NCBI GenBank assembly: GCA_963825205.1
Contig: CAWGSE010000016.1
Location: 27,421-91,420, forward strand
From: an uncultured Acidobacteriota bacterium
GTDB taxonomy: Bacteria; Acidobacteriota; Terriglobia; Terriglobales; Acidobacteriaceae
Direction: 5' to 3'
Length of the DNA: 64,000 nt
The translations under genes were made by a program, and so were the position numbers. Below the pieces are notes generated by a model. The model was not told where the DNA came from, searched no databases, and worked only from the letters and a program-made list of their open reading frames with translations. The first letter of the stretch is position 1. Each line of letters opens with the position of its first letter. This document shows positions 25,501-58,923 of the stretch, one piece after another.

Positions 25501-25571
25501 CCGTTTTTCTCAAAACAGGCTGAATTCCGGGGATAGATGTCTACCCGAGGTGCGAACGTCGCTTGTAGGGC

Positions 25572-38009: not shown

Positions 38010-38138
38010 TTCACCACCGAGACACAGAGGCAGCAAATGCGAAAGGCATGGTAAATGGCCGTCGCGGCGTATCCGCGTTCAAGTCAAGAATGAAAGAAGA
38101 ATTCGCTTTCCTCTGTGTCTCTGTGCCTCTGTGGTAAA
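38010..38138. repeat. Composite hairpin repeat (CACAGAG-type arms) between xerD and xerC
   Basis: The left arm TTCACCACCGAGACACAGAGGCAGC (38010-38034) pairs with the right arm CCTCTGTGTCTCTGTGCCTCTGTGGTAAA (38110-38138). The loop is about 75 nt. Confidence 0.8.
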
Positions 38139-38140
38139 GG

Positions 38141-39073
38141 ATGTTCGGCGATTGTATGAGCGAAAGATCCAATCAAAAGCGCACCACCGTCGAGAAAGCC
38201 ACCGACCAGTTTTTGGGAGTGCTGCGGCAGAGGAATGCCTCGACCCATACCATCAAGGCGTATGCGGGCGACCTGGAGAATTTTGCCAACTACATTGGCG
38301 CGCGCGGGTGGAGGAGCATTGACCACGTTGCGATCCGCGGATTTCTGTCGCACCTCTACGAAAAGGGACTCAGCAAGGCATCGGTAGCGCGGTCGCTGGC
38401 GGCCGTGCGGTCGCTGTACCGGTGGCTGGCGCAGGAAGGCGTGGTGGAACACAACCCGGCAAAACTGGTGGCCACGCCGAAGTTGCCCAAGAAACTGCCG
38501 CGGGTGCCGACCATCGAAGAGATGAATTCCGTTCTCGATGGAGCCATGCCCGAAGTGGCGGCCTTTCCCGAGCGCGACCGGCTCCTGCTCGAATTACTTT
38601 ACGGCTGCGGAATCCGAAACTCGGAGTTGATCGGCATCAACGTCGACGACATTCGAGTCAGCAACGAGGCCATCCTGATTCGCGGCAAAGGAAAGAAAGA
38701 GCGCTACGTCCCGTTTGGGGGATCGGCGGCCTCGGCCCTGCGGGCCTACTTGCCGGAGCGCCAGAAGGTTTTGGCGGACAAGAATAAAACAACCTCGGCG
38801 CTGCTGATTAACCAGCGCGGCGGGCGGCTGACCGTGCGCAGCGTCGGCCGCATTGTGAAGAAGATCGCTGTCGCCAAGGGGCTGTCACCGGATGTCCATC
38901 CGCACACTCTCCGCCATGCTTTCGGAACGCACATGCTGGAAGAGGGTGCCGACCTGCGCGCCATCCAGGAGATGCTGGGCCACGAGCGGCTCTCGACCAC
39001 CCAACGCTACACCCAGCTTTCCATGAAGCACGTGCTGGCGGTGTACGACCAGACGCATCCCCGGGCAAAATGA
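38141..39073 (+). CDS. xerC: Site-specific tyrosine recombinase XerC
   Basis: [39 protein letters not shown]. The XerC versus XerD assignment rests on sequence resemblance only. Confidence 0.8.
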
Positions 39074-39117
39074 GGGGCTGAGTAAAAACAGGGCCTCTCT
39101 CGCCTGGAATCTTCCAC

Positions 39118-41922: not shown

Positions 41923-42044
41923 GAGGGGCGGGGAAAATATACCTGAAGCCAAAGCCGGCCGGAAGCCTATCGCTGCTCGGAGAGGACCCTTTAAAATCAA
42001 TGGTTTGTATTCGCGCAAAACAGGCATGTCTTTACACTGAAATC

Positions 42045-42278
42045 GTGTACACTATATTCGTGCGAAACATAACCTTCAGCGCCGACCCAAACGCCATTGA
42101 GCGCGCTCGCGAGGTCGCCCGCGCCGAGCACAAAACCCTGAACGACGCGTTTCGGGAGTGGCTTGATTGGTATGCCTCCCGCACTGTCACCAGACAAGAG
42201 ATCGAAGCACTGTTCGAGAAATTGAGATACGCGGACGCTGGTCGGAAGTTCACGCGGGACGAGATGAATGAACGCTAA
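42045..42278 (+). CDS. VapB-type antitoxin (start uncertain)
   Basis: Small ORF overlapping the PIN toxin gene by 11 nt. Possible GTG starts at 42045 or 42060. The palindrome TACAC-N7-GTGTA at 42038-42054 is a possible operator. Confidence 0.6.
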   Translation: MYTIFVRNITFSADPNAIERAREVARAEHKTLNDAFREWLDWYASRTVTRQEIEALFEKLRYADAGRKFTRDEMNER

Positions 42279-42690
42279 AAGCTTTTTGGACACGAACGTG
42301 ATTGTTTATGCCTTCGACCGAACCAGTCCCAAAAAAGCCAAGGTTGCGCAGCGCTTGATTGCCGAAGGGGTCGCCGAGAAGCGAGCCATGGTCAGTTATC
42401 AAGTGGTTCAGGAATTCATCAATGTTGCGCTCCGCGGATTTCGGGTATCTATAGCGCGCTCTGACCTGGAGTCTTTCGTCCTTACCGCGCTGTTTCCCAT
42501 GGCGGCGGTATCTTGGTCGCCAGCGCTGACAATGCAAGGGCTGCGAATGCAAGCCGCGCACCAGTTTGGCTGGTATGACTCGCTCATCATCGCCGCGGCT
42601 CTGCAGGGAGGTTGCAAAGTCCTTTACAGCGAGGACATGCAACATGGGCAGCGACTGGGTGATCTGGTTGTAGAAAACCCGTTCCTATAG
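42268..42690 (+). CDS. vapC: PIN-domain toxin VapC
   Basis: FLDTNVIVYAF, QEF, YDSLIIAAA and SED acidic positions match a PIN domain. Confidence 0.85.
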   Translation: MNAKSFLDTNVIVYAFDRTSPKKAKVAQRLIAEGVAEKRAMVSYQVVQEFINVALRGFRVSIARSDLESFVLTALFPMAAVSWSPALTMQGLRMQAAHQFGWYDSLIIAAALQGGCKVLYSEDMQHGQRLGDLVVENPFL

Positions 42691-42792
42691 CAGAGTGGTA
42701 CACGTGCGCCAACCATTTCGCCGGCATCCAATATGCTAGGCTTAAATAGTTTTATACTATGGGGTACGTGTCCCCTCTGAAGGAAACCAGAT

Positions 42793-45818
<3,026 letters not shown>

Positions 45819-45996
45819 CAATCCACGGGAAGCCTGAACTGCACAACATTTTAGATTTCTCGCCCCGCGGTTGAGCCCAACGCGTCCTGAAACGGCACCC
45901 GTTTCCAGCCGCCGCGAAGCGCTCCGCCACAAAACTTCCGCCACCGGCTCCAATCGGAACTAAAATGGAAGAGCAGGCAGTGCGGGAGGTTTCCCC

Positions 45997-46440
45997 ATGA
46001 TTGCACTTCGCCTTGTCCACCTGATCGAGAGCCACTCCGAAGAACTGGCGGAAGGACTCACCAAAAAACTGCTTTCCTCCGAACGCACCCGCGATCTGCG
46101 CAAGGTGCCGGCCGATGAGTTGCATCATCGCTGTCATGAGATTTACCGCAATCTCAGCGACTGGCTCCTGAACAAAACCGAGCACGATATCGAAAGCGTG
46201 TACAAGGCTCTCGGAGCTCGCCGCGCAGGCCAGGGAGTGTCGGGTGCCTGTCTGACCTGGGCCATCCTGCTCACCAAGGAGCATCTGTGGACCTTTCTGG
46301 AGTGGGAAGGCGTGCACGGCGGCCTGCACAATGTTTTCGGAGAACTCGAGTTGCTGAGGCTGCTCGATCAATTCTTTGACCGGGCTGTCTACTACGCGGC
46401 GGAAGGGTACGAGGAAGCCATCGCGTCGCGGGTGGCATGA
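45997..46440 (+). CDS. Hypothetical all-helical protein (147 aa)
   Basis: ORF track. GGGAGG upstream. No family recognised with confidence. Confidence 0.55.
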   Translation: MIALRLVHLIESHSEELAEGLTKKLLSSERTRDLRKVPADELHHRCHEIYRNLSDWLLNKTEHDIESVYKALGARRAGQGVSGACLTWAILLTKEHLWTFLEWEGVHGGLHNVFGELELLRLLDQFFDRAVYYAAEGYEEAIASRVA

Positions 46441-46446
46441 GGGCAC

Positions 46447-46508
46447 AAGCTTTTTACCGCAGAGATCGCAGAGAAGGCCGCAGAGGACGCGGAGAAAACT
46501 CTTAACCG
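46447..46508. repeat. CCGCAGAG/GCGGAGAA-type repeat arm (left arm of an inverted pair)
   Basis: AAGCTTTTTACCGCAGAGATCGCAGAGAAGGCCGCAGAGGACGCGGAGAAAACTCTTAACCG matches the reverse complement of 46873-46935. Confidence 0.85.
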
Positions 46509-46579
46509 TTCAATTGCGTGACACCCGAGCTCGTGAAGGCCACCGGCTGCGAGTGCTGCTAAATCCCTCCGATCTGGAA

Positions 46580-46789
46580 GCTGTTGTGCGGTAGCTGCCG
46601 TGATTGAGCTGCCGTGATTGAGCTGCCGTGATTGAGCTGCCGTGATTGAACTGCCGTGATTGAGCCGCTGTGATTGAGCCGCTGTGATTGAGCTGCTGTG
46701 ATGTAGCTGCTGTGATGTAGCTGCTGTGATGGAAATGCTGTAATGGAAATGCTGTAATGGAAATGCTGTAATGGAAATGCTCTGTCCCT
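46580..46789. repeat. 14-bp tandem repeat array (13 clear units plus degenerate end units)
   Basis: Units from 46594: 4x GCTGCCGTGATTGA, ACTGCCGTGATTGA, 2x GCCGCTGTGATTGA, 2x GCTGCTGTGATGTA, GCTGCTGTGATGGA, 3x AATGCTGTAATGGA. Confidence 0.95.
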
Positions 46790-46872
46790 GCACTCGCAAG
46801 GGGAATTCGCTCGCTGAGCCTGCGTTCCCGGGGAAGTGCTGTTCATGCCTTAGCCCACTGGGTTTGCCTTAG

Positions 46873-46935
46873 CGGTTAAAGGATTTTCTCAGCGCCCTCT
46901 GCGAAGCCTCCGCGCCCTCTGCGGTAAAAGCTTTT
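46873..46935. repeat. CCGCAGAG/GCGGAGAA-type repeat arm (right arm, inverted)
   Basis: CGGTTAAAGGATTTTCTCAGCGCCCTCTGCGAAGCCTCCGCGCCCTCTGCGGTAAAAGCTTTT. It overlaps the last ~15 codons of the CYTH gene. Confidence 0.85.
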
Positions 46936-47494
46936 GCCCGCCGCCAATCGCCCGAAACGTCATTTCCATAGCGGAACTCCGGCTCTCGCGCTTCCATTTG
47001 AAAAATAAACCCGCGTACGTGTCAGCGATGTAGTCCTGGGTCGAGATTCCCAGGAGTTTCGCAGTACGGTCTATCCACCGCGCCGGCCCTTCGATCTCGC
47101 CGAATTCTCCAATCGGCGTCACATCCAGCACCAACTGGCCCCGCCCGTCGCTCCACTCCGCCCGGAGCTTCTCGTAACGGAAGCTCGGCCGGAACCGCAG
47201 CGCCAGCAGAATGGCCTCCATCTTCTCGCCGTCGGCCACTTTGGTTTCGGTTTCCATGCGTGTTTTGTGGCGGCCCACCGTGCCCTTCGCCTTGTGCGTC
47301 AGCACCCAATCCTTCCCGTATTTGCGAAGCCGCAGCAGCTCGCCGCGCTTGCGCAGGGGCTGTCCCGGCAAATCGTAAAGCGTGTTCATTTCATGAGTGC
47401 GCGGCGTGACCAGTCGAAACTTCGCCGCCCGCAGCCGGCGTGTGAGTGCACGCAAGTTTGTAATCCGAAACTTGATCTCGATTTCTTTGGGCAT
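46889..47494 (-). CDS. CYTH domain protein (CyaB-like class IV adenylate cyclase / triphosphatase fold)
   Basis: N-terminal MPKEIEIKFRI (ExExK). The C-terminal tail QKLLPQRARRLRRGR is encoded by the repeat arm. Confidence 0.8.
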   Translation of the reverse strand: MPKEIEIKFRITNLRALTRRLRAAKFRLVTPRTHEMNTLYDLPGQPLRKRGELLRLRKYGKDWVLTHKAKGTVGRHKTRMETETKVADGEKMEAILLALRFRPSFRYEKLRAEWSDGRGQLVLDVTPIGEFGEIEGPARWIDRTAKLLGISTQDYIADTYAGLFFKWKRESRSSAMEMTFRAIGGGQKLLPQRARRLRRGR

Positions 47495-47502
47495 GGGGAC
47501 AA

Positions 47503-47647
47503 GGCTCTAGGCTTTAGGCTCTCGCAACTTTTCCGGCTGCGCCAACAGAATTTCACATTGCGCGTTGCGAGCCAGAAGCGGCCGCAAAACACGAGAGCCA
47601 GAGCCTAGAGCCTAGAGCCTAAGCCTAAAGCCTAGAGTCCAAAGCCC
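47503..47647. repeat. Composite hairpin repeat with 7-nt GGCTYTA-type arms
   Basis: The left arm GGCTCTAGGCTTTAGGCTCTCG pairs with the right arm CGAGAGCCAGAGCCTAGAGCCTAGAGCCTAAGCCTAAAGCCTAGAG. An inner 8-bp stem CTCGCAAC/GTTGCGAG is also present. It lies between the DedA-rhodanese stop and the CYTH start. Confidence 0.8.
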
Positions 47648-47653
47648 GCCCTG

Positions 47654-48634
47654 CTAACCAAACGTCGGCAACTTCACCAGATCCTCGCGCGGCACCGACT
47701 CCAGCGGTTGTCCCGCCTTGCGCCACGCCGCCAGCCCGCCGACAATGATAAACGCGTTGAATCCCTTTTCCCGCAGCATGTGCGCCACCCGGGCGCTGGT
47801 GCCTTCGCGCACTCAAGTGCAGTAGAGATAGATATCTCGATCCTTCGGAAGTTTCTTGAGTTCTTCCTCGAAGTTGTTGGGTTCGATGCGGATCGAGCCC
47901 TTGATGCGCGCCATCTCCGCGTCATAATAGCCGTGGCTGCGGACGTCCACCACCAAAACCCTCTCCGCTTCCGCCGAGGCCAGCTTCTCAATCAGTTCCT
48001 GCACCTGCACGCGCGGCACCACCCGGTACACTCGGTTCTTCCGGACCAGCCACAGCCGGTACGCGACGTACACCACGACGCCCACAAGCAGGACTTCTTC
48101 AATGGCACGTCCCGCGGTCTGGAAGGTGCGGCTGATGGCCTTGAGGAAGTCGCGACCCAGCAGCCCCAGCAGGAAATAGGCAAGCACGTACAGCGCGGCG
48201 CCCGCCAGGTCGAATCGCAGGAACTGGGAAAAGGGCATCTTCATGCTGCCCGCCAGGGGAGGCCCCATGGTGTTCACGCCGGGAATGAACTTGGCCACGA
48301 CCAGCGTGCTCTTGCCGCGCTTGTAGAACGACTCGGCGGAGCGCAGGATGCAGGTCTCGGGATTGGCCGACACTTTGCACAGGAATCCGAGAAGCGCCCA
48401 GCCCGAATGCCGGCCGGCAAAGAATAATAGGGTATCGCCCAGCACCATCGCGGCCAATGCGAGTGGCAACAGAACGGGAGCGCTCAACAGGTGCCCGGCG
48501 GCCGCCGCACCCGCGACAACCAGACCCAGGGCCGCGGGCACGGGTAGCCCAATCGCCTCCGCGAAGACCATCGCGACGACAATGCTGTATCCGTGCCGGG
48601 AGATCAACGAAACCAGGTCCGCCATGCGCTTCAA
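47654..48634 (-). CDS. DedA-family membrane domain fused to a rhodanese domain; in-frame TGA (47813-47815) at the expected catalytic Cys position, candidate selenocysteine
   Basis: ORF 47813..48634 ends ...KDRDIYLYCT-TGA. The same frame continues VREGTSARVAHMLREKGFNAFIIVGGLAAWRKAGQPLESVPREDLVKLPTFG to TAG 47654-47656, which completes the rhodanese domain. Confidence 0.6.
47780..47812 (-). promoter_or_regulatory. SECIS-like hairpin immediately 3' of the in-frame UGA
   Basis: The RNA can fold as GUGCGC-GAAGG-CACC-AGCGCCCG-GGUG-GCGCAC. An alternative fold is GCGCC-CGGGU-GGCGC, starting 16 nt after the UGA. Confidence 0.4.
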
Positions 48635-48750: not shown

Positions 48751-49152
48751 ATGTCCAGTTCAATAGCGACTGCCACACGCCGCCACATCAACCTTCCCGG
48801 CCGTACCTCGGCACTTCCTTTCAGCGATGCCGTGCTGGTGGGAGAGACACTTTACCTGGCTGGCCGGATCGGCCTCGACCCGGTGACCGGCCGCGCCCCC
48901 GCCGACGTGAGTGCCGAGATCCAACTGCTCCTCGATGGCGTCGAGGCCGTGCTGGCCGAGGCCGGCATGAAAATGGACGACCTGGTGTCGGTGCAGATAT
49001 TTTCTCCCGACCTTTCGCTGTGGGAGCCTTTCAACGCGGCGTATGTGAAGCGCTTTTCGAAAGAATTGCCGGCGCGGGCGTTTATCGGGTCCGGACCGTT
49101 GTTGCTGGGCGGGCGCTTCGAGTTGATTGGCATGGCGGTGCGAAGATCTTAA
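48751..49152 (+). CDS. RidA/YjgF family reactive-intermediate deaminase-like protein
   Basis: ORF track. FSDAVLVGETLYLAGRIGLDPVTG...ARAFIGSGPLLLGGRFELIGMA. The stop TAA lies inside the left terminal inverted repeat of the next element. Confidence 0.8.
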   Translation: MSSSIATATRRHINLPGRTSALPFSDAVLVGETLYLAGRIGLDPVTGRAPADVSAEIQLLLDGVEAVLAEAGMKMDDLVSVQIFSPDLSLWEPFNAAYVKRFSKELPARAFIGSGPLLLGGRFELIGMAVRRS

Positions 49153-49247
49153 ACCGCAGAGGGCGCGGAGAACGGCCGCAGAGCACGCAGAGAAACTCCC
49201 AGGAGAGTTCTGACACCGGGAAAGGTCCGAGGAAAAGCGCGGCCGCC

Positions 49248-49413
49248 TCAGCGATCTCTGCGGCAGTTCTCGGCGCACTCTGCGGTGGGCTCGTCTTCCC
49301 GATAGTCATTCACCATCCGCCGAACCCCGTCCCGCAACAGAACCACGTGGAAGTTGATCACCAGCCCAACCTGCAGGCCGAGCAGCCTGAGATGGGAGAG
49401 CAATTGTGCCTCG
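49248..49413 (-). pseudogene. 3' fragment of a GxxExxY gene created by a 244-bp tandem duplication
   Basis: ORF 49248..49553 contains HLVDEAQLLSHLRLLGLQVGLVINFHVVLLRDGVRRMVNDYREDEPTAECAENCRRDR, which duplicates the C-terminus of ORF 49492..49977. Confidence 0.8.
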
Positions 49414-49491
49414 TCAACCAGATGCTGGGAGCCTTCAAACTTCCAGGAGAGTTCTGACACCGGGAAAGGTCCGAGGAAAAGCGCGGCCGCC

Positions 49492-49914
49492 TCAGCGATC
49501 TCTGCGGCAGTTCTCGGCGCACTCTGCGGTGGGCTCGTCTTCCCGATAGTCATTCACCATCCGCCGAACCCCGTCCCGCAACAGAACCACGTGGAAGTTG
49601 AGCAGCAGCCCAACCTGCAGGCCGAGCAGCCTGAGATGGGAGAGCAATTGTGCCTCGTCAACCGGATGCAACTGATCCTTGCATTTCAATTCAACCACAA
49701 CCCGGCTATCTACCAGCAGATCCGCGCGAAACCCACACTCCAGCTTCACGCCTTCGTAAATTAAAGGCACACTCTTCTGTTGAATCACGCTGAGCCCTTG
49801 CGTCTTAAGTTCATAAGCGAGACACGCCTCATAGGCGGACTCCAGCAAGCCAGGACCGAGGCGGCGATGAATCTTGATTGCCGCTCCGATGATTCGATCG
49901 GTCAATTGAAACAT
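49492..49914 (-). CDS. GxxExxY family protein
   Basis: Start placed at ATG 49914 (MFQLTDRIIGAAIKIHRRLGPGLLESAYEACLAYELKTQG). The GLLESAY motif matches GxxExxY. The C-terminal tail is encoded by a repeat arm. Confidence 0.85.
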   Translation of the reverse strand: MFQLTDRIIGAAIKIHRRLGPGLLESAYEACLAYELKTQGLSVIQQKSVPLIYEGVKLECGFRADLLVDSRVVVELKCKDQLHPVDEAQLLSHLRLLGLQVGLLLNFHVVLLRDGVRRMVNDYREDEPTAECAENCRRDR

Positions 49915-50050
49915 CGGGATTCGGCCAGTCCGCTGCGAAATGGGCTGCAGGCTACGGGATGCAAGGGGAAGGCTCATGAAGCCGACGTTAGAGCAGGAAA
50001 TATGCGAGGTCTGTAACGGTTGTCACGCGAACACGTGAGCCCTTCTGGAT

Positions 50051-50197
50051 TTTCTCTGCGAACTCCACGGTAGTTCTCCGCGAACGCTGCGGCAGTTCTC
50101 CCCGAACTCCAGGCAGTTCTCCGCGAACTTTGCGGCAGTTCTCCGCGACTTTACGGCGGTTCTCTGCGCCCTCTCCGCGCCCTCTGCGGTTTAAGAT
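50051..50197. repeat. Six to seven tandem 21-22-nt units (TTCTCCGCGAACTNTGCGGCAG type) forming the right arm of the element
   Basis: Units read from 50051: TTCTCTGCGAACTCCACGGTAG, TTCTCCGCGAACGCTGCGGCAG, TTCTCCCCGAACTCCAGGCAG, TTCTCCGCGAACTTTGCGGCAG, TTCTCCGCGACTTTACGGCGG, and TTCTCTGCGCCCTCTCCGCGCCCTCTGCGGTTTAAGAT. Confidence 0.9.
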
Positions 50198-50201
50198 GTT
50201 G

Positions 50202-51209
50202 CTACTTCTCCCGCGCCACGACAAACTCGGGAGCCCACAGCAAAGCCCGCTTGATCTCCGAGTCAGGAAATGTGCAGATCGCCTTGCGCGCTGCTTCCGC
50301 GTAGTGCGTGGCCCGGGCATGCGCGGCTTCGAGGGCGCCGTAGCGGCTCAAAATTGCCAGGATATCCGCGTGGGTCACGCCGTTAAAGGCGCGATCGCGC
50401 AGCACGGTCGCGATTTTCTCGCGCTCCGCCGGCGTGCAGCGCTCCAGCGCGTAGATCACCGCCATGGTGACCTTGCCCTCGCGCAGGTCGCTGGCCACAG
50501 GCTTGCCCAGCACACTCTCCGAAGCGGTCAGGTCGAGTACGTCGTCCACGATCTGGAATGCCATGCCCAGGTTGCGGCCGTAGGAACCGGCAGCCTCTTC
50601 CTGCTCCGGGGTCGCTTCCCCCAGAATCGCGCCCAGCCGCATGCACACCGAAAACAGGCACGCGGTCTTGCGGAAGATCAGGTCGAAGTGCTCGTCGAGC
50701 GTGATCAACTTGCCCAGCTTTTCCATCTGCAGAAGTTCACCTTCGACCATCTGCTGGGTGAGTTCGATCAAGGTGTCAAGCACGCGGAAGTTGCGCTCCT
50801 GAACCGCGATCTTGAAGGACTGCATGTAGAGCCAGTCGCCGGCCAGCACGCACTTGGAGTTCCCCCAGCGGGTGTTCGCCGCGGGTCGGCCACGCCGGGT
50901 CTGGGCTTCGTCGATGATGTCGTCGTGGACGAGCGTGGCCGTATGAATGATCTCCACCACGGCTCCCAGGCGCACGGCCCCGGTGCCTTTGTACTGAAAA
51001 AGCTTCGCCGCCAGCAGCAGAAGCGCCGGCCGAATGCGCTTACCGCCGCCTTCCCGCAGGTACTCGCCAATCTCGGTGATGGCGGACACGTCGGAGACAG
51101 TGTCCTGCCCGAATTCCGCCTCGATGGCCAGCAGGTCATCGTGCAGCAGTTCGAAAATCTCTTTCCCGTTGATGGCTGAGGGTGTACTCAATCCGCCGCT
51201 TTCACTCAA
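50202..51209 (-). CDS. Polyprenyl diphosphate synthase (trans-isoprenyl, IspB-like)
   Basis: Aspartate-rich motifs LVHDDIIDE and FQIVDDVLD. Confidence 0.9.
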   Translation of the reverse strand: MSESGGLSTPSAINGKEIFELLHDDLLAIEAEFGQDTVSDVSAITEIGEYLREGGGKRIRPALLLLAAKLFQYKGTGAVRLGAVVEIIHTATLVHDDIIDEAQTRRGRPAANTRWGNSKCVLAGDWLYMQSFKIAVQERNFRVLDTLIELTQQMVEGELLQMEKLGKLITLDEHFDLIFRKTACLFSVCMRLGAILGEATPEQEEAAGSYGRNLGMAFQIVDDVLDLTASESVLGKPVASDLREGKVTMAVIYALERCTPAEREKIATVLRDRAFNGVTHADILAILSRYGALEAAHARATHYAEAARKAICTFPDSEIKRALLWAPEFVVAREK

Positions 51210-51217
51210 AATGATCT

Positions 51218-51340
51218 TTCACCACAGAGTCACAGAGACTCGGAGAAAATCGTTTCTAAATTCCAAATCCTCGATCGTGATGCTCGCCCGTACTTCAGAA
51301 TCCTGAGCCCCGATTTTCTTCTCCGTGCCTCGGTGGTGAA
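51218..51340. repeat. Composite hairpin repeat (CACAGAG-type arms) between yajQ and the polyprenyl synthase gene
   Basis: TTCACCACAGAGTCACAGAGACTCGGAGAAAATCG (51218-51252) pairs with CGATTTTCTTCTCCGTGCCTCGGTGGTGAA (51311-51340). Confidence 0.85.
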
Positions 51341-51348
51341 TTGACTCT

Positions 51349-51846
51349 TCAATTCGACCGGTAATTCGTAAACTGCAAATCGATGCCGAAATCGCGCGAC
51401 TTCAGCAGGGCAATGATTTCCTGCAGGGTGTCGCGATCCTTGCCGCTAATCCGAACCAGGTCGCCCTGGATCGACGCCTGCGCCTTCTTCTTCGAGTCCT
51501 TCACCAGCTTTACGATTTCGCGTGCTTTCTCGATAGCGATGCCTTGCTGGATCGTGATCTTCTGTTTGGCCGTGCCGCCCGCTGCCGGCTCCACCGGACC
51601 ATAGGTCAGGCCCTTGAGCGAAATGCCGCGCTTCACCAGTTTCTGCTGCAGGATATCGTTTACGGCCTTGAGCTTGTACTCGTCGGCCGAGTGCAGCAGG
51701 ATGGCGTCCTTGCCCTCCATCTCGATCCTCGACTTGGAGTCCTTCAGATCGAAACGGGTGGTCACTTCCTTCATGGCCTGCTGGATGGCATTGGAGGCCT
51801 CCTGCAGGTCAACTTTGCTGACGATATCGAAAGTATTCTCGGGCAT
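51349..51846 (-). CDS. yajQ: YajQ family nucleotide (cyclic-di-GMP)-binding protein
   Basis: MPENTFDIVSKVDLQEASNAIQQAMKEVTTRFDLKDS... is a characteristic UPF0234/YajQ sequence. Confidence 0.88.
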   Translation of the reverse strand: MPENTFDIVSKVDLQEASNAIQQAMKEVTTRFDLKDSKSRIEMEGKDAILLHSADEYKLKAVNDILQQKLVKRGISLKGLTYGPVEPAAGGTAKQKITIQQGIAIEKAREIVKLVKDSKKKAQASIQGDLVRISGKDRDTLQEIIALLKSRDFGIDLQFTNYRSN

Positions 51847-51907
51847 GATTCGCTACCTGATCAGATTCGCATTTCCCCGCGAAAGTCGCAGCTTACAAGC
51901 TAAACGG

Positions 51908-52711
51908 TCATGCGGTTTTCGTGAAGGGAAAAGAAGCTATGGAAATTTTGCGTAGTCTGTACACCGATTTCCTCCGCGGAGAGACCCCGCAATTCGCCCA
52001 GTGCCGCGCGACCTCTTTGACGAATGCCGGCTCATTGCGCTTGCCGCGATGCGGCACCGGCGCCAGGAATGGGGAATCGGTCTCGATCAGCAGGCGGTCG
52101 AGCGGCACTTCAAGCGCGGCGTCGCGAATCTGCTGCGCCTTCGGGAAGGTGATATTTCCGGCAAAAGAGACCATAAACCCCATGTCGAGCGCGCGCCTGG
52201 CTTGCGCCACGTTGCCGGTGAAGCAGTGCAGGATGCCACCCAGTCCGGCGGGCGCCCATTGTTCCTGAATCAGCCGCAGGCAATCGTCCCAGGCGTCTTC
52301 GCTGCCCTCCGATGGACGGCAATGAATCACGATGGGCAGCTTCGCGCTGCGGGCCAGTTCCATCTGCTTGACGAAGACTCCCTGCTGCACTTCGCGCGGA
52401 GAGTGATCGTAATAGTAATCCAGGCCGATTTCTCCCCAGGCTATGACCTTGGGTCGCTTGGCCATTTGTTCCATGCGCTCGAAGGCGGCCTGGTCTGCGA
52501 GTTTGGCTTCATGCGGATGGATGCCGATGGTCGCATAGATGAACTCGTACTTCTCGGCCAACTGGATGCCGCACTCGAAGTTCACCGGCCCATCGCCATT
52601 GCCGATGGCGACAATTGTGTCCACGCCCGCCTCGCGAGCCCGCGCGATCACCTGCTCGCGATCGGAGTCGAAGCGGTGGCCTTCGAGATGGGCGTGGGAA
52701 TCTACGAACAT
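51908..52711 (-). CDS. tatD: TatD family metal-dependent hydrolase
   Basis: MFVDSHAHL, plus the conserved HCF and ETDSPFL blocks. Confidence 0.9.
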   Translation of the reverse strand: MFVDSHAHLEGHRFDSDREQVIARAREAGVDTIVAIGNGDGPVNFECGIQLAEKYEFIYATIGIHPHEAKLADQAAFERMEQMAKRPKVIAWGEIGLDYYYDHSPREVQQGVFVKQMELARSAKLPIVIHCRPSEGSEDAWDDCLRLIQEQWAPAGLGGILHCFTGNVAQARRALDMGFMVSFAGNITFPKAQQIRDAALEVPLDRLLIETDSPFLAPVPHRGKRNEPAFVKEVARHWANCGVSPRRKSVYRLRKISIASFPFTKTA

Positions 52712-52897
52712 AGTCGCTGGTCGTTAGTCGTCAGTCGTTGGCAAAACCCGCGTAGGGACAGACGCCGTCTTTTGTCCAGACCGAGCGATAGCTCGGCTAG
52801 CTATCTGGGCAACGGTGAACAGCGCTCGGCCAACGTCTAACTCTTTTCCCCCGACGACTGGCGACGTTCTTCCCTGACGACTGAAGACTGAAGACTG
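52712..52897. repeat. Composite hairpin repeat with 7-nt GTCGTYR / CAGTCKT-type arms between metG and tatD
   Basis: The left arm AGTCGCTGGTCGTTAGTCGTCAGTCGTTGGC (52712-52742) pairs with the right arm CCCGACGACTGGCGACGTTCTTCCCTGACGACTGAAGACTGAAGACTG (52849-52897). The loop contains the small hairpin CCGAGC-GATA-GCTCGG. Confidence 0.8.
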
Positions 52898-52899
52898 TT

Positions 52900-54906
52900 C
52901 TATTTCAGCCGAGCTCCCACCGGCACATCCTCAAGAAATCCCGCCAACACGGGTTGCCCACCCTCAAGCGATGCCGCCACGATCATGCCATTCGACTCCA
53001 GGCCGCGCAGCTTGCGGGGCGCGAGGTTGGCGACGATGACCACTTTGCGGCCGACCAGCGTTTCGGGTGCGTAGGCTTCGGCGATCCCGGCCACGATCTG
53101 GCGCACTTCCGTCCCGATGTCGACTTCGAGACGCAGCAACTTGTCGGCATTCTTCACCTTCTCTGCGACTTTCACCACGCCAACCCGCAACTCAACCTTC
53201 ACGAAATCGTCGATGGTGATCTTGCCATCGGGCGTGGCTGCCGGCGGCTTCTGAGCGGGTATGACCGGGCGCAATGCAACCGGGGGCGCGAGTTCAGGTT
53301 TCGTTTCTTCCTCGACCGCTGCCGCGGGGCGTCCTTGCTCTTCCATCTTCTGCATCCTTTCCACGGCGCTCTTGTCGGCGCGCGGGAACACGGGCTGAAC
53401 CTCGCCCAGCCTGGTGCCCAGGCGAAGCTGTCCCCATTTCAATTCGCCCAGGGCGACGGTCTTGATATCTCCCAGGCCCAACTGCGTCCAGATTCTGGCG
53501 GTTGCGTCCGGAATGACCGGGTGTGCCAGCACAGTGACGATGCGCAGCGCTTCGGCAGCCGTATACAGAACGGTGGCCAGGCGGGCGCGGCTATCCTCAT
53601 CCTGCTTTTCTCCCAGCGCCCACGGCTCGTTTTCGACAATGTACTTGTCGACCGCCGCCACCAGCGTCCACGCCACTTCCAGGGCCTTGGAGAACTGGAA
53701 CTGGTCAAACAGGACGTTATAGTTCGCAATCACGTCGCGCGCGATCTCGGCAATCGCATCATCGGCGGGCGTGTGCGACGCGGTGTGCGAGGGATACGGC
53801 ACCTCACCCTTGAAATAGCGGGTGATCATGGTCAGGGTGCGGCTGGCCAGGTTGCCAATCCCATTGGCGAGATCGGAGTTGTAGCGCTGCACCAGGGCAT
53901 CGAATGAAAACGAGCCGTCCGAGCCAAACACCACCTCGCGCAAAAGAAAATAACGCAGCGCGTCGGCGCCGAGCACGTCGAGAATCGTTTCCGCGCGCAC
54001 GATGTTGCCGCGCGACTTCGACATCTTGTTCTCTTCGAACAGCAGCCAGCCGTGCGCCATGATGCCTTTGGGCAACGGCAGTCCCGCAGCCATCAGGAAC
54101 GCCGGCCAGTAGACGCAGTGGAAGCGGACAATTTCCTTGCCGATCATCTGCACGTCGGCCGGCCAGTACTTGTCGTACTTGGCCGTGTCCGGCGACCCGT
54201 AACCGAGCGCGGTAATGTAGTTGGCCAGCGCGTCCAGCCAGACATAGATCACGTGCTTGGGATCGTCGGGCACGGGAATGCCCCAGGAGAACGTGCTGCG
54301 GCTGATGGAAAGATCCTTTAATCCTCCCTTGACGAACGAGATTACTTCGTTGCGGCGCGTCTCCGGGCGGATCCAATTGGGCTGGTCGGTATAGAGCTGC
54401 AGCAACTTGTCCGCGAACGCCGAAAGCTTGAAGAAATAGTTTTCTTCGTGCACGGTTTCGGTGATGCGGCCGCACTCCGGACAGGGCTCACCCGGCCCGA
54501 CATCGACGTACATCTCGTCGGAAACGCAATACTGTCCGGTATAGCTGCCTTTGTAGATGTAGCCGTTCTCGTTAAGCTTGCGGAACAGCGCCTGCACGCT
54601 TTTCTTGTGACGATCTTCGGTGGTGCGGATGAAGTCGTTGTGGGTGAGCCCCATGCGCTTCCAAAGCGCGCGAAATTCGCCGGAAACTTCATCGGCAAAT
54701 TGCTGCGGGGTCTTCCCGGCAGCGGCGGCGGCCCGTTCGATCTTCTGCCCGTGTTCATCGGTGCCGGTCAGGAAATAGGTGTCGTCGCCCAGCATGCGGT
54801 GGCGGCGCGCGATGGTGTCGCAGGCTATGGTCGTGTAGGCGTGTCCGATATGAGGACGCGCGTTGACGTAATAAATCGGGGTCGTGATGTAGAACTTCTT
54901 GCTCAT
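52900..54906 (-). CDS. metG: Methionine--tRNA ligase with C-terminal tRNA-binding domain
   Basis: HIGHAYT and KMSKS motifs, plus the zinc knuckle CPECG. Confidence 0.95.
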   Translation of the reverse strand: MSKKFYITTPIYYVNARPHIGHAYTTIACDTIARRHRMLGDDTYFLTGTDEHGQKIERAAAAAGKTPQQFADEVSGEFRALWKRMGLTHNDFIRTTEDRHKKSVQALFRKLNENGYIYKGSYTGQYCVSDEMYVDVGPGEPCPECGRITETVHEENYFFKLSAFADKLLQLYTDQPNWIRPETRRNEVISFVKGGLKDLSISRSTFSWGIPVPDDPKHVIYVWLDALANYITALGYGSPDTAKYDKYWPADVQMIGKEIVRFHCVYWPAFLMAAGLPLPKGIMAHGWLLFEENKMSKSRGNIVRAETILDVLGADALRYFLLREVVFGSDGSFSFDALVQRYNSDLANGIGNLASRTLTMITRYFKGEVPYPSHTASHTPADDAIAEIARDVIANYNVLFDQFQFSKALEVAWTLVAAVDKYIVENEPWALGEKQDEDSRARLATVLYTAAEALRIVTVLAHPVIPDATARIWTQLGLGDIKTVALGELKWGQLRLGTRLGEVQPVFPRADKSAVERMQKMEEQGRPAAAVEEETKPELAPPVALRPVIPAQKPPAATPDGKITIDDFVKVELRVGVVKVAEKVKNADKLLRLEVDIGTEVRQIVAGIAEAYAPETLVGRKVVIVANLAPRKLRGLESNGMIVAASLEGGQPVLAGFLEDVPVGARLK

Positions 54907-54943
54907 GAGAACTTGAAACCCAGCGGCTGCAAAAGGCGCGAAA

Positions 54944-55000
54944 GTAACCCGAAGGATAACAGGCCGCGCTTCCTTCGTGCTTTCCCGGTGTCCTTCGTGG
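54944..55000. repeat. Hairpin repeat with CACGAAGG-type arms between larC and metG
   Basis: CCGAAGGA (54949-54956) pairs with TCCTTCG (54971-54977). The long arm CTTCCTTCGTGCTTTCCCGGTGTCCTTCGTGG ends at the larC stop. Confidence 0.7.
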
Positions 55001-56407
55001 CTAAGCTTTTTTGCCGGCCGCGCTCAGCAGGTAAGCCTGCGTCGCTTCCTGCATAACGGTTTTCAGCGGTACCCGATGCTGGGCGGCGATGCGGCGGCAA
55101 TCCTCGTACTCAGGCGCGCAGTTGGTCACGGTGCCGTTCATGCTGGCAATTTTCATGCGTACATCGCCCCAGGAAGTCGCTACGGTGACCCAGCGCCGGG
55201 CGAGCGTGTTGCGCTGTTCCTGGCGCTGCCGCACTCCCAGGGTCGTGGTCTCGGCAAAAATGATTTGCGTAAGCTTGGCGGCGTCTGCGGGCTTGCACAG
55301 AACCGTCAGCAGCGTGCCGGGCCGGCTCTTTTTCATTTGCACCGGCATCCCGAAGACGTCCAGCGCGCCCTCTTCGAGCAGGCGGTCGAGCACGTAGCCG
55401 AAGACCTGCGGGTTCAAATCATCCAGGTTCGCCTCCAGCACCGAAATGGTTTCCTGGGCGGTTTTGGAGGCGAGGGCGGAAGCTGCTTCGCCGATCGTGA
55501 TGCGGACCACGTTGGCGTGTCCGGGAAAATCGCGGGTGCCGGCTCCATAGCCGCTGCGCTCAATCTTCATTTCTGGAAATGCTCCGAAGCGGGTGGCCAG
55601 CACCTTCACGATGGCGGCACCCGTAGGGGTGAGCAACTCGGCCTGGATTCCCGAGGAAAAGACCGGCGCATTCTGCAGCAGTTCCACCGTGGCGGGTGCA
55701 GGCACCGGAAACACTCCGTGCGCGCACTTCACTGTACCGCCGCCCAGGTTGAGCGCTGAGCAGACAATTTCTTCCACCCCCAGCGCCTCCGCGCCCACGG
55801 CCGCGCCCACGATGTCGACCATCGCGTCGACCGCGCCCACCTCGTGGAAGTGCACCGCCTCCATGTCCATGTTGTGAATCTTGGCTTCGGCCGCACCCAG
55901 AGCTTCGAAAATGGCAATCGCGGTCTGCTTTGCAGAATCGCTGATTGCCGTGCCCGCGATGATCCGCTTGATCTGCTTCAGGCTGCGACCGTGCTCATGC
56001 AGGCTCCCGCTCCGCGAAGAAGCCGGCGAGTGCGAATGACCGTGCGGATTCTCGTCGAGCGGTGCCGGACCGTGCGAGTGAGCCTGCGCCGGATCGTGTG
56101 AATGCACCGGTGCGGGATCGTGCAGGTGAGCCTGCGCAGGATCGTGCGAATGCGCGTGATCATGCGCAGTTTCGCGCTGCGCCCAAAACTCCTCCCGCGG
56201 CAATTCCTTCTCACCATGGACCAGCACATCCACCTTGGTCGCCGTGATCCCGCTGCGGTTGACCTTCGAGATCTCCAACCGAGCTCCGATGTTGAGCGCC
56301 GCGACGGTTTTCTCCAGCACGTCGGGGGACACCCCGGAGTCGATCAGGGCGCCCAGGAACATGTCGCCGCTCATGCCGGAAAAACAATCAAGGTATGCGA
56401 TCTTCAT
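55001..56407 (-). CDS. larC: LarC-type nickel insertion protein (nickel-pincer cofactor biosynthesis; DUF111)
   Basis: Start placed at ATG 56407 (MKIAYLDCFSGMSGDMFLGALIDSG). His-rich segment HDHAHSHDPAQAHLHDPAPVHSHDPAQAHSHGP. Confidence 0.88.
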   Translation of the reverse strand: MKIAYLDCFSGMSGDMFLGALIDSGVSPDVLEKTVAALNIGARLEISKVNRSGITATKVDVLVHGEKELPREEFWAQRETAHDHAHSHDPAQAHLHDPAPVHSHDPAQAHSHGPAPLDENPHGHSHSPASSRSGSLHEHGRSLKQIKRIIAGTAISDSAKQTAIAIFEALGAAEAKIHNMDMEAVHFHEVGAVDAMVDIVGAAVGAEALGVEEIVCSALNLGGGTVKCAHGVFPVPAPATVELLQNAPVFSSGIQAELLTPTGAAIVKVLATRFGAFPEMKIERSGYGAGTRDFPGHANVVRITIGEAASALASKTAQETISVLEANLDDLNPQVFGYVLDRLLEEGALDVFGMPVQMKKSRPGTLLTVLCKPADAAKLTQIIFAETTTLGVRQRQEQRNTLARRWVTVATSWGDVRMKIASMNGTVTNCAPEYEDCRRIAAQHRVPLKTVMQEATQAYLLSAAGKKA

Positions 56408-56411
56408 CAGG

Positions 56412-56450
56412 ACTTTCTTCACCACAAAAGACACGAAGTACCGAACGAGG
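56412..56450. repeat. Solo repeat arm (TTCACCAC...CACGAAG type)
   Basis: CTTTCTTCACCACAAAAGACACGAAGTACCGAACGAGGG resembles the reverse complement of 54969-55000. Confidence 0.55.
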
Positions 56451-56512
56451 GATCGCGCAGGCTCTTCGGGCCGCGCCGTTCCAGACTAGGGCGCCTCTCA
56501 ACCACGGGCACC

Positions 56513-56690
56513 GCTCAGCGCCCTCTACGGCAGTTCTCCCCGAACTCTGCGGTAGTTCTCCCCGAACTCTGCGGCAGCCCTCCGCGAACTCTGCGGTAGT
56601 CGTCCGTGCACTTTGCGGCAAGTTCTCCCCGAACTCTACGGCAGTTCTCCGCGCCCTCTGCGGTAGTTCTCCGCGAACTCTGCGGTAACA
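56513..56690. repeat. Eight tandem ~22-nt units (TTCTCCCCGAACTCTGCGGYAG type)
   Basis: Contiguous units read from the sequence. The array ends CTGCGGTAACAGCTC, like the terminus at 46921-46935. Confidence 0.9.
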
Positions 56691-56822
56691 GCTCTTCCCC
56701 ACCTTCTCCCCGAAACAAAACTCAAACTTCATGATAGGGAACACAAGTATCCAGCGTCAAACCAGCCGCGCTCTCCCCTTTTGCTACAATCACTAGTTTA
56801 ATCAACAAGTTAGAGGGGCCTT

Positions 56823-58923
56823 GTGTATCGCACGCTGGAACGCCGTTTAATCCATCACGTTAGAGATTTCCTGCGCCGCACCTACGACCTCGATCTCCCG
56901 AAAATCGTGGTGGAGCAACCGCCCAAGGTCGAACTGGGCGAGTACGCCATGCCGCTTGCCTTTGAGCTGGCCAAGAAACTGCGTAAGGCGCCGCGCAAGA
57001 TTGCCGAGGAAATCGTGGCCGGGATCGAGCCGATTGCAGGATTTGAGAAGCTGGAAGTCGCCGGGGCCGGCTACATCAATGCCCGCGTGCACCGCGGCGC
57101 GGTAGCTGCGGGGTTGCTGGCCGACGAGAATCCCCAAGTCGACGTGCCCGCCGGCAAAATTCTGGTCGAGCACTCCAGCATCAACCCCAACAAGGCCGCG
57201 CACATCGGCCACCTGCGCAATGCGATTCTGGGCGACACGTTTGTCCGGTTGCTTCGTTTTGCCGGCAGGGAAGTCGATGTTCAGAACTACATTGACAACA
57301 CCGGCGTACAGGTGGCCGACGTGGTCGTGGGCTTTCTCTATCTCGAGAAGAAATCCCGGGCTGAGATCGAACGGCTTGCCGCTCAGCCGCGCTTTGACTA
57401 CGAGTGCTGGGACCTCTACGCGCGCGCCTCGCAGTGGTATGCCGAGGACAAGCAGAACCAGCAGGCACGGCTTAAGACCCTGCACGAAATCGAAGCCGGC
57501 GGAAACGAAGTCGCTGCCATCGCCGACCTGATTTCGGTGGCGGTGCTTCGCCGCCACCTCGAGACCATGGACCGGCTCGATATCGAATACGACTTCCTGC
57601 CGCGGGAGAGCGAAATTCTGCATTTGCATTTCTGGGACGCCGCTTTTGCGAAGCTAAAAGACGCGGGGGTGCTGTTCTACGAGACGGAAGGGAAGAACAA
57701 GGGCTGCTGGGTGATGCGGCGAGCGGGCACTGCGAAAAAATCTGAAACCGCAGAGGTCGCGGAGAACGCCGCAGAGGACGCGGAGCAGGCTGCAGAGGAG
57801 GCGGAGAAAGCTGCAAAGGACGCGGAGAAGCCAGCAGGGGACGCCGAGAAGCCAGCCAAGGACGCCGAGTCTCCCGATGTGGTCTCTGCGGAAGATCAGA
57901 AAGTGATTGTCCGGTCCAACGGTACCGTCGGCTACGTGGGCAAGGACATCGCCTACCACATGTGGAAGTTCGGGCTGCTCGGACGCGACTTCGAATACTG
58001 CAGGTTTTACAAATATCCGAACCAGCACCAGGTGCTGGATTTCGGCGGCCCAGGGCGAGCAAGACCATCCTCATTTCGGCGACGTGGCTGAAATCTATAA
58101 CGTCATTGACGCGCGCCAGGCGGAGGCGCAGAACACCGTCATCGAAGCCCTGCGCGGGCTCGGCCACAACGACGCCGCCGACCATTACACCCATTTTTCC
58201 TACGAGATGGTTGCGCTGACTCCGCGCTGCGCCGCCGAACTGGGCTACCAGTTGTCGGACGAGGATAAGGCCCGGCCCTACATCGAAGTCTCGGGCCGCA
58301 AAGGCTTTGGCGTGAAAGCGGATGACCTGCTCGACCGCCTCATCGCGTCCGCAAAAGCGGAAGTCGATCCGCGCCATCCCCAGTTGAGCGACCAGGAGCG
58401 GCGCAGCATCGCCACCCAGATCGCCATCGGAGCTTTGCGCTACTTCATGCTGAAGTACACCAAGCCATCGGTCATCGCCTTCGACTTCAAAGATGCGTTG
58501 AGCTTCGAGGGCGAAACCGGGCCCTACGCGCAATATGCCGTGGTGCGCGCCACTAACATTTTCCGCAAAGGGGGATTCGATCCCGACAAGTTCAGCCAGG
58601 ACACGTCCAACCATCTCTCGGCGGAGGACTTCGGGAAGTCATTGGCGGGCGAATCGGGCAACGAAATCTGGGAGCTCTGGTTAGCCGCGGCCAAGACTGC
58701 GTACGTGGTGGACCAGTGCATTGCGACCACGGAGCCCGCGTATCTCGCCAAGCACGCATTTCAACTGGCCCAGCTCTTTAACTACTTTTACCACCGCCAT
58801 CCCATCTTGAATGAAGCCGATGAGGGCCGGAAGAAATTTCTGCTGGCCACGGTAGCGGTGGTGCGCCGCGAACTGATGCGTACGCTGGTGGTCCTGGGTA
58901 TCACTGTCCCGCCAGTGATGTAG
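56823..58923 (+). CDS. argS: Arginine--tRNA ligase, interrupted as given by one extra nt at about 58035, and carrying an in-frame repeat-derived insertion
   Basis: ORFs 56823..58091 and 57907..58923. HIGH-type motif AAHIGHLRNAILGD. The frame switch is at YPNQHQV|WISAAQGEQDHPHFGDVAEIYNVIDARQ. The gene is essential, so the frameshift is probably a sequence error. Confidence 0.92.
57740..57896. repeat. CCGCAGAG/GCGGAGAA-type element inserted in frame within argS
   Basis: ATCTGAAACCGCAGAGGTCGCGGAGAACGCCGCAGAGGACGCGGAG...TCTCTGCGGAAGAT. Both ends resemble the 26-bp TIR of the 49146-50197 element. It is translated as SETAEVAENAAEDAEQAAEEAEKAAKDAEKPAGDAEKPAKDAESPDVVSAED. Confidence 0.75.

Follow-up and report, generated by a model that had tools for sequence, protein, structure and literature searches.

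Repeat-armed hairpins at gene junctions of a Terriglobales bacterium: a candidate multi-flavour family of extragenic palindromic repeats

Introduction

Many gene junctions between 46 and 58 kb of the DNA analysed here (the window, a stretch of 64,000 nt of contig CAWGSE010000016.1 from an uncultured Acidobacteriota bacterium) hold repeats whose arms are built of short tandem units, and the question raised by this locus is what these elements are. A sequence-only reading of the window had listed ten such sites in several sequence "flavours", and had compared them with repetitive extragenic palindromic (REP) sequences, bacterial interspersed mosaic elements (BIMEs) and miniature inverted-repeat transposable elements (MITEs). 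The elements lie where genes meet, and in many cases they provide a stop codon or adjoin one. With moderate confidence, we interpret them as a multi-flavour family of extragenic palindromic repeats, similar to REP/BIME/REPIN sequences and to the short tandemly repeated repetitive (STRR) elements of cyanobacteria, that spreads at the DNA level and forms hairpins at gene junctions, with a nuclease of the GxxExxY family maybe being its enzyme.

Hairpin sites in the window

The motifs and sequences on which the sequence-only reading was based are all present in the window letters where it had placed them. CCGCAGAG occurs in 20 copies, compared with 3.9 +/- 2.1 in shuffled sequences, and 18 of the 20 lie within 46.4-57.9 kb. 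Enrichment of TTCACCAC is weaker (7 copies versus 1.5 expected, with one of 100 shuffles reaching 7). Tandem Repeats Finder (TRF) detects periods of 7, 8, 21 and 22 nt. Folding was scored with RNAfold as z against dinucleotide shuffles, given below for the + and then the - strand. Six sites fold as hairpins (A, B, C, D, F and G), with arms made of tandem 7-, 8- or 11/22-nt units. The elements are listed here, with the strand where one is assigned and the segment folded in brackets.

38010-38138: hairpin A, 8-nt CACAGAG flavour, TTCACCACCGAGACACAGAGG ... CCTCTGTGTCTCTGTGCCTCTGTGGTAA (38005-38140, z -2.8 / -4.7)
46447-46498, + strand: hairpin B left arm, CCGCAGAG flavour, nhmmer E 9e-13 (whole hairpin 46440-46940, z -4.6 / -6.1)
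46579-46781: hairpin B loop, 14-nt tandem arrays, AGCTGCTGTGATTG x10.6 then TGCTGTAATGGAAA x4.3
46882-46935, - strand: hairpin B right arm, nhmmer E 5e-9
47502-47647: hairpin C, 7-nt GGCTYTA flavour, between the CYTH gene start and the VTT/rhodanese gene end (47495-47650, z -4.2 / -3.6)
49144-49286: hairpin D, CCGCAGAG flavour, arm 49144-49197, loop, arm 49247-49286 (49143-49292, z -5.7 / -5.6)
50047-50200, - strand: array E, a one-sided run of about 6 copies of the 22-nt unit TTCTCCGCGAACTCTGCGGCAG
51218-51340: hairpin F, CACAGAG flavour, TTCACCAC...GTGGTGAA, yajQ-polyprenyl synthase junction (51210-51345, z -2.2 / -3.2)
52712-52897: hairpin G, 7-nt GTCGTYR flavour, filling the metG-tatD junction (52708-52900, z -3.2 / -0.5)
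54944-55000: element H, CACGAAGG flavour, larC-metG junction, a decayed copy
56412-56450: solo CACGAAG-type arm, TTCACCACAAAAGACACGAAG, larC/argS divergent region
56514-56695, - strand: array I, 7.4 copies of the 22-nt unit seen in E, no inverted partner nearby
57737-57892, + strand: element J, with the full left end AAAAAATCTGAAACCGCAGAG... and six 21-nt units, in the reading frame of argS

By RNAfold, no hairpin is formed by array E alone (50040-50200, z -0.7), by array I with the solo arm (56405-56700, z -0.2 / -1.4) or by element H within the window (54907-55000, z -0.8), and in element J (57735-57900, z -0.9) only the outermost ~18 nt pair. Six of the ten sites originally listed are therefore real hairpins by their z scores, and E, H, I with its solo arm, and J are solo or degenerate arms, J being coding. 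The single architecture proposed for the flavours stands. The statement that the CACAGAG arms and those of the type listed at 54944-55000 and 56412-56450 both start with TTCACCAC is correct at 38010, 51218 and 56418 and incorrect for 54944-55000, which ends TTAGCCAC.

Hairpin A occupies the gap from the stop of a xerD-like gene (38009) to the start of a xerC-like gene (38141). The left arm of hairpin B begins 7 nt past the stop of an RsbRD_N-like gene (46440), and the CYTH gene (46889-47494, - strand) takes its final ~15 codons and its TGA stop from the right arm. The TAA stop of ridA (49150-49152) is formed by the TTAA at the end of a hairpin D arm, and array E ends CTCTGCGGTTTAAG, 1-2 nt from the stop of the polyprenyl synthase gene (pps, 50202-50204). 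As first described, three of the four junctions in the run larC-metG-tatD-yajQ-pps carry different flavours abutting stop and start codons.

The remaining junction of this run, tatD-yajQ (51847-51907), is the only one without a hairpin; it is short (54-61 nt), and its sequence differs little among all the relatives, as would suit an ordinary signal for regulation or translation. The 365-nt loop of hairpin B consists mostly of the 14-nt arrays, and these are missing from the same junction in relatives.

Arm anatomy and distribution across phyla

An arm consists of an outer end (AAAGnCTTTAA-CC or TTCACC), then 2-7 tandem units and, in the first two of the flavours named next, an inner end GAGAAAA. 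The unit motifs are CRCRGAGn (8 nt), CCGCAGAGnnCGCnGAGAAnnn (11/22 nt) and heptamers such as GTCGTYR or GGCTYTA. Arms are found singly or as inverted pairs around an unrelated spacer, so that a stem of 20-45 bp, mismatched at the unit spacers, can form in either DNA strand or in a transcript.

A scan for two consecutive units (24 specified bases) covered 185,579 species, each by one representative genome; we estimate ~0.01 matches by chance. The two-unit CCGCAGAG arm was found in at least 109 genomic stretches, mostly from Acidobacteriota; exact two-unit arms also occur in Dormiibacterota, Binatia, Gemmatimonadota (Gemmatimonadales), Chloroflexota (Anaerolineae) and Bacteroidota, making at least six phyla in total. 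The cross-phylum matches come from metagenome-assembled genomes (MAGs), and two Bacteroidota contigs of 44-46% GC carry the GC-rich hairpins between ordinary genes; in these two, the low GC content speaks against contamination.

A position matrix of 113 copies from these stretches reads aAAAa.CTTtAA-CCGCAGAG..CGC.GAGAAc.g-CCGCAGAGa.CGC.GAGAAaa.C, and conservation stops there. The typical arm has two 22-nt units, the outer palindrome AAAGnCTTT(AA) and the inner GAGAAAA; the equivalent ends of the CACAGAG flavour are TTCACC ... GAGAAAATC. A hidden Markov model (HMM) of the arm gives 234 matches in 114 sequences (the loci plus the window). Among these are 22 pairs in the order X..rcX (an arm, then its reverse complement) with gaps of up to 150 nt and 31 pairs in the order rcX..X with gaps of -9 to 35 nt and a common central TTAAAGnCTTTAA; 40 of the 114 sequences have a single arm only. 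Arm pairs 0.5-2.6 kb apart just bracket ordinary host genes. An ungapped inverted-repeat census of related loci yielded 24 heptamer-armed inverted repeats of many flavours. The HMM and this census were used in place of a partner search with TRF consensus sequences, which was dropped as too strict for degenerate arrays, having missed known partners. In a crude open reading frame (ORF) test, arms lie inside long ORFs less often than random segments do (0.41 versus 0.82) and more often within 60 nt of the stop end of an ORF (0.52 versus 0.29). Rfam at the gathering threshold has no matches in the whole window, which also contains no rRNA.

Orthologous junctions in related genomes

Eight syntenic loci from seven genomes (L001-L004 and L194-L197), with TatD 83-96% identical to that of the window, were compared; L003 and L004 are two assemblies with the same TatD protein and identical junctions. 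The states found are as follows.

larC-metG: hairpin of CACGAAGG type, decayed in the window, also in L001, L002, L003 and, with a truncated left arm, L195; CACAGAGG type in L196, of which L197 has the left arm alone
metG-tatD: heptamer hairpin in most; in L003 both arms changed to mixed AGCTGAT/GGTCRTT, with a loop core common to the window, L001 and L197
yajQ-pps: TTCACCAC...GTGGTGAA hairpin in the window, L001-L004, L196 and L197 (also in L114-L119); a 23-24-nt junction instead of the hairpin in L194 and L195
pps-ridA: five states, namely a unit with a GxxExxY gene (window, L002, L003/L004), a one-unit mini-hairpin (L001), a solo arm (L195), a heptamer hairpin (L194) and nothing (L196)
argS-larC: arrays of CCGCAGAG type, with 7 units in the window and 2 in L001; in L002, L003, L195, L196 and L197, arrays or hairpins of heptamers

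Unit number, flavour and presence vary between genomes, and the elements expand, contract, switch flavour, collapse and vanish. The orthologues of the decayed element H in L001, L002 and L003 are clean hairpins with 31-nt arms, and the GGCTYTA flavour of hairpin C is found at the same junction in L002, L003 and L195. Since L196 and L197 are more distant than L194 and L195 yet have the yajQ-pps hairpin, the short junction of the latter two represents a clean loss. The REP/BIME-like behaviour foreseen from the sequence is thus borne out: the elements are extragenic, come either as lone arms or paired in inverted orientation, with both polarities represented, and vary in presence and copy number among relatives.

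At the yajQ-pps junction, arm identity among orthologues is 78% (left) and 82% (right), whereas loops are 42% identical, compared with 39% for shuffled loops and 70% for yajQ third codon positions, in a small sample of mostly orthologous, not independent, copies. The arms are therefore kept or homogenised, and the loops are replaced faster than by neutral point substitution. Pairing is retained through compensatory changes in L196 (TCACCAC/GTGGTGA to TCGCCAC/GTGGCGA) and in L002 (CAGAG/CTCTG to CGGAG/CTCCG). A purine-purine mismatch at the unit spacer is conserved in this hairpin and not seen in phage copies.

The loop of hairpin G (52755-52796) contains two small perfect hairpins, GGACAGACG...CGTCTGTCC and CCGAGC...GCTCGG, which are conserved in L001, L003 and L197 despite differing surrounding arms. 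This suggests that the two form a nested module, conserved separately.

The GxxExxY gene and its link with the arms

The GxxExxY unit of the pps-ridA junction has, in order along the - strand, array E, a promoter-like site, the ORF (49977-49492) ending in an arm, a loop and an inverted arm. Hairpin D is, read on this strand, the 3' hairpin of the unit (ORF-end arm, loop, inverted arm). Its components besides D and E are as follows.

49492-49977, - strand: GxxExxY / PDDEXK_3 gene, Pfam 1.6e-38, TIGR04256 2e-40
49999-50026, - strand: promoter-like match GTGACA-16-CATATT, sigma-70-like, by consensus match only
49193-49669: tandem duplication of 244 bp, 2.0 copies, 98%

The assignment to the family is clear (TIGR04256 137.7 bits against a cut-off of 35; PF13366 132.1 bits against a cut-off of 22). 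The C-terminal ~13 codons and the stop of the gene lie within an arm (49491-49530), and the promoter-like match, between the upstream array E and the gene start, is conserved in L002. Ends of 29 nt (49143-49171 and 50172-50200, array E against the left arm of D), 97% complementary and ~1 kb apart, enclose the gene. The 244-bp duplication comprises the right arm of hairpin D, the loop and the 3' end of the gene.

This arrangement recurs. We examined 80 metagenomic loci, among the matches listed, whose GxxExxY proteins are 62-81% identical to that of the window. Inverted arms are present in the 350-nt flanks of 52 of the 72 testable genes, compared with 0 of 72 shuffles, and the flanks of 68 of the 80 loci contain at least four arm motifs, 39 of CCGCAGAG type and 29 of CCGCAAAG/CCGCGAAG type. 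The association with GxxExxY genes envisaged in the sequence-only reading is thus strong for this clade; a link with four-helix-bundle genes of the intervening-sequence type, also envisaged, was not seen in any locus examined. Flavour tracks protein similarity, the nearest neighbour having the same flavour in 62 of 68 cases versus 51% expected (0 of 2000 permutations reach the observed difference). Conversely, a GxxExxY homologue is present in 2 of the at least 109 loci selected by arm, a ratio that resembles that of RAYT (REP-associated tyrosine transposase) genes to REPs. No divergent GxxExxY genes were found near other flavours in all fetched loci.

Coding and phage copies

The ArgRS proteins of the window, L001 and L002 have GCGAAAAAATCTGAAACCGCAGAG... 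in frame at one site. Element J, in a putative loop of the coding region, is translated as ...KKSETAEVAENAAEDAEQAAEEAEKAAKDAEK..., with a short right-end remnant CTCTGCGG at 57884-57891. The window protein is longer here by 27 AE-rich residues, equal to some four additional units of 21 nt. That the period is 21 nt and no longer 22 nt is in keeping with selection for the reading frame. L003 has a different insert at the same site, with two small perfect hairpins.

CACAGAG hairpins are found in 26 IMG/VR stretches, often in two to four copies per contig, and are built as in the host (TTCACCAC, three 8-nt units, GAGAAAA). One phage copy directly follows a T7-type portal gene, and another is beside an HK97 gp10-like gene. 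In viral contigs there were 0 matches to the CCGCAGAG arm, and the viral scan gave 0 confirmed matches to the GxxExxY clade.

Comparison with known systems

A REP is an imperfect palindrome of 20-40 bp with a terminal GTAG or CGTC tag (PMC3733652). Like the REP/BIME/REPIN sequences and their RAYTs (PMC3733652, PMC3116915), the elements described here are short, high-copy and extragenic with occasional intragenic copies, have several families per genome, occur as singlets or as inverted doublets of both polarities (HH, TT) that form larger hairpins, and include a small nuclease-type gene amid inverted copies, most copies being gene-less. Unlike a REP, the single arm is a tandem array without self-complementarity that ends in AAAGnCTTTAACC or TTCACC, with no GTAG/CGTC tag; the flanked gene is a multi-copy PD-(D/E)XK (GxxExxY) gene and not a Y1 HUH transposase, and mobility would follow by analogy. 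No RAYT lies beside any arm examined, whole genomes not having been searched for RAYTs.

Heterocyst-forming cyanobacteria contain the sequences STRR1-3, with the units CCCCAGT, TTGGTCA and CAACAGT, and cyanobacterial STRR sequences were reportedly studied by Vioque in 1997 (cited in PMC2858038). Cyanobacterial STRR heptamers can form intergenic hairpins, for example between hupS and hupL, of unknown function, for which transcript stability or termination has been proposed (PMC2670836). The architecture therefore has a precedent, and the view that it had never been formally described was too strong (PMC2670836). The GTCGTYR and GGCTYTA arms are likewise tandem 7-nt intergenic units able to form hairpins, in many flavours. 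They differ from STRR sequences in phylum (Acidobacteriota and others) and in unit sequence; further differences are the 8-nt and 11/22-nt flavours with defined ends, the identity across phyla, the nuclease link and the in-frame coding copies.

Two systems offer partial parallels. Rickettsia palindromic elements are in-frame palindromic insertions in protein-coding genes. The copy in argS is, by analogy only, similar, being a palindromic repeat in frame in an essential gene that is not destroyed by it; the sequences are unrelated, and the coding copy here changes from a 22-nt to a 21-nt period and grows by whole units. The 23S rRNA intervening sequences carry a small ORF, reside in a 23S helix and are excised by RNase III. 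They share with the GxxExxY unit a small ORF of a dispersed multi-copy family between long inverted arms, but the unit is not in rRNA, and its ORF is GxxExxY and not a four-helix bundle.

TAACTGA-type heptamers are also intergenic tandem repeats common to distant phyla; nearly all are direct and upstream of start codons, with one inverted set among 170 (PMC4679880), whereas inverted pairing is the rule for the elements here. The parts for which we could not find a description are the nuclease association and the arm identity across phyla, in an architecture that is otherwise REP/STRR-like.

Proposed mechanism and alternatives

In our preferred reading, that of a spreading extragenic repeat family, spread and homogenisation would occur at the DNA level, with units gained by slippage and both arms held alike by transposition or by copying from the hairpin as template. 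At a junction, the hairpin would form the 3' end of the transcript, direct its processing or insulate it, a role to which the positions of the elements point; it would explain their tolerance or retention and their persistence in compact phage genomes and operon junctions. The GxxExxY PD-(D/E)XK clade amid CCGCAGAG/CCGCAAAG arms may recognise or mobilise them, as RAYTs do REPs. Tentatively, this can be extended to GxxExxY proteins (TIGR04256/PDDEXK_3) in general, which could be dedicated nucleases of repeat-armed palindromes across phyla, the PD-(D/E)XK counterpart of the RAYT-REP pair, with clade-specific flavours and with the gene-less hairpins of junctions, phage genomes and even coding loops as non-autonomous progeny; we regard this wider proposal as possible but less likely than not.

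Several observations count against these proposals. Among 72 hairpins at gene 3' ends the sense-strand fold is not favoured (25 versus 47, p = 0.08), which leaves an RNA-level role unproven. The terminator function once suggested for the elements lacks its canonical features (short GC stem and T-run): none of the 11 terminator-like matches in 45.5-58.2 kb, whose count is not above that of shuffles, coincides with an element. As a candidate identity in its own right, the canonical intrinsic terminator (short GC-rich stem, 3-8-nt loop, T-run) was rejected. No transposition event or target-site duplication is shown at the compared junctions, and differences in unit number among assemblies may partly reflect repeat collapse in short-read MAGs. 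The matches in L045, L058 and L065 are AE-rich coding repeats rather than elements and are probably coincidental. With regard to the nuclease, GxxExxY may be the cognate enzyme, a role predicted by analogy; the function of the family is listed as unknown, with multiple horizontal transfers (PMC3424549). The AlphaFold model has a pLDDT of 62, Foldseek against PDB gave nothing at E < 0.1, and a PDB sequence search gave nothing. The correlation of flavour with protein is confounded with host phylogeny, no cargo or enzyme for the CACAGAG or heptamer flavours was found in fetched loci, and the nuclease link could equally reflect a gene that inserts into, or brings along, such hairpins.

It is conceivable, if unlikely, that the hairpins are local host signals (terminators, RNase III sites or mRNA stabilisers) that grew by slippage and quasi-palindrome correction, are immobile and have no dedicated enzyme, GxxExxY genes merely reusing the signal as a terminator or insulator. 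Hairpins do hold the same orthologous junctions in relatives with TatD 83-96% identical, many different heptamer flavours exist, and unit changes are slippage-like, arrays E and I expanding a unit already at those sites in L001. Phages likewise keep hairpins between structural genes, as T7 does its RNase III sites. Such an origin does not account for the finding in six phyla, low-GC Bacteroidota among them, of identical arms of 44 nt whose outer and inner ends are conserved, or for the full arm end in frame within argS. It is also at odds with loop replacement that outpaces synonymous sites, with five different states at one junction and with a sense strand that has no folding advantage.

Rather doubtful is the explanation that the arms are footprints or insulators of GxxExxY cassettes, the mobile unit being the gene with its flanking arms and gene-less hairpins being left by palindrome collapse. 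The clade is nearly always arm-flanked, the L001 mini-hairpin lies exactly where the window, L002 and L003 hold the gene, and the tandem duplication in the window contains a partial gene copy with an arm, all as expected of cassettes. Against this, most gene-less hairpins, with loops of 0-150 nt, have no gene remnant; the widely spaced arm pairs (0.5-2.6 kb) hold ordinary host genes, and no such gene is near the Bacteroidota and phage copies.

That the elements are classical MITEs, which derive from a cut-and-paste DNA transposon, are non-autonomous and have terminal inverted repeats, was part of the original suggestion and now appears improbable. The 97% complementary 29-nt ends around the gene are terminal inverted repeats, arm ends are conserved, and presence varies among relatives, in agreement with MITEs. 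However, no target-site duplication emerges when junctions with and without an element are compared; the TTAA is part of the palindrome, and at ridA it is the native stop region, found even in arm-less L196. Internal sequences are unrelated between copies, even between orthologues (42% identity, about random), the number of arm units is variable, arms also occur singly or tail-to-tail, and no transposase gene with these ends was seen.

Assembly artefacts of low-complexity reads, hinted at by frameshifts in secA and argS that suggest indel errors and by unit numbers that differ between assemblies, are extremely improbable and refuted for the existence of the elements, leaving only unit counts uncertain, as the same elements are at the same orthologous junctions in eight independent assemblies (NCBI, JGI and ENA), and the elements occur in more than 100 other contigs.

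Other features of the window

The host belongs to the Terriglobales: its TatD shares 96% and 95% identity with the closest homologues, and named ones are annotated "Terriglobales bacterium". The genes of 36-59 kb encode, in order, XerD-like and XerC-like recombinases, an acyl-ligase/acyltransferase, SecA, an RsbRD_N-like protein, CYTH (-), VTT/rhodanese (-), RidA (+) and GxxExxY/PDDEXK_3 (-), then the co-directional - strand run of polyprenyl synthase, YajQ/DUF520, TatD, MetRS and LarC, and finally ArgRS (+). Integrons combine an integrase with an array of promoterless cassettes, each having attC at its 3' end. The two tyrosine recombinases of the window score as XerD-like and XerC-like, far under IntI cut-offs, and integron attC sites were rejected as an identity for the hairpins, the recombinases being XerC/XerD-like and the flanked genes housekeeping.

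Single frameshifts split secA (~44295-44320) and argS (~58035-58040), both intact in all relatives; these are probably indel errors of assembly, not pseudogenes. The window is therefore not fully accurate at the level of single bases, and where its unit counts depart from those of short-read assemblies the cause may be technical.

The VTT/rhodanese gene (47656-48634, - strand) has an in-frame TGA at 47813-47815, beyond which the frame runs on for ~52 conserved codons to TAG. The TGA and downstream frame are also present in L194, L195 and L196, and a GC-rich hairpin GTGCGCGAAGG...GGCGCAC lies 3' of the TGA, which is a candidate selenocysteine or read-through site.

Other repeats of the window differ from the family. 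A long hairpin at 23393-23685 (z -8.5 / -7.0) has 49-nt arms that are 82% complementary; these are not micro-repeats, contain a small palindrome each, and have no Rfam match. The region 24760-25635 contains a ~65-nt direct repeat (24760-24823 and 25565-25628) with an inverted partial copy (25476-25501), the repeats bracketing a small gene (24931-25385) that apparently codes for a secreted protein. The palindromic hairpin AAAGCAGCGGAAG-NNNN-CTTCCGCTGCTTT occurs at 9448-9477 and 10377-10406, on either side of a ~900-nt gene. In related genomes there is a further palindromic repeat family, CGGTGGAGCGGCGGGCGTC... (L002:18619-18675, L003:5165-5219 and 19524-19581, L016:4804-4861), with one copy inside the ArgRS insert of L003.

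Significance

Acidobacteriota are among the most abundant soil bacteria, and their non-coding DNA is almost undescribed. The family described here fills most junctions of a 12-kb stretch and shapes gene ends by contributing stop codons and C-terminal tails, and in argS an element has altered the product of the gene, an essential aminoacyl-tRNA synthetase. Mis-called ORFs and collapsed repeats in metagenome assemblies are likely to result from such elements. Arms common to distant phyla, together with the flavour carried by phages, make useful markers of horizontal exchange. The near-obligate link of one clade with the arms is a first testable lead on the huge orphan family of GxxExxY nucleases, and it may point to a second, independent solution to the partnership of repeat and enzyme known from REPs and RAYTs.

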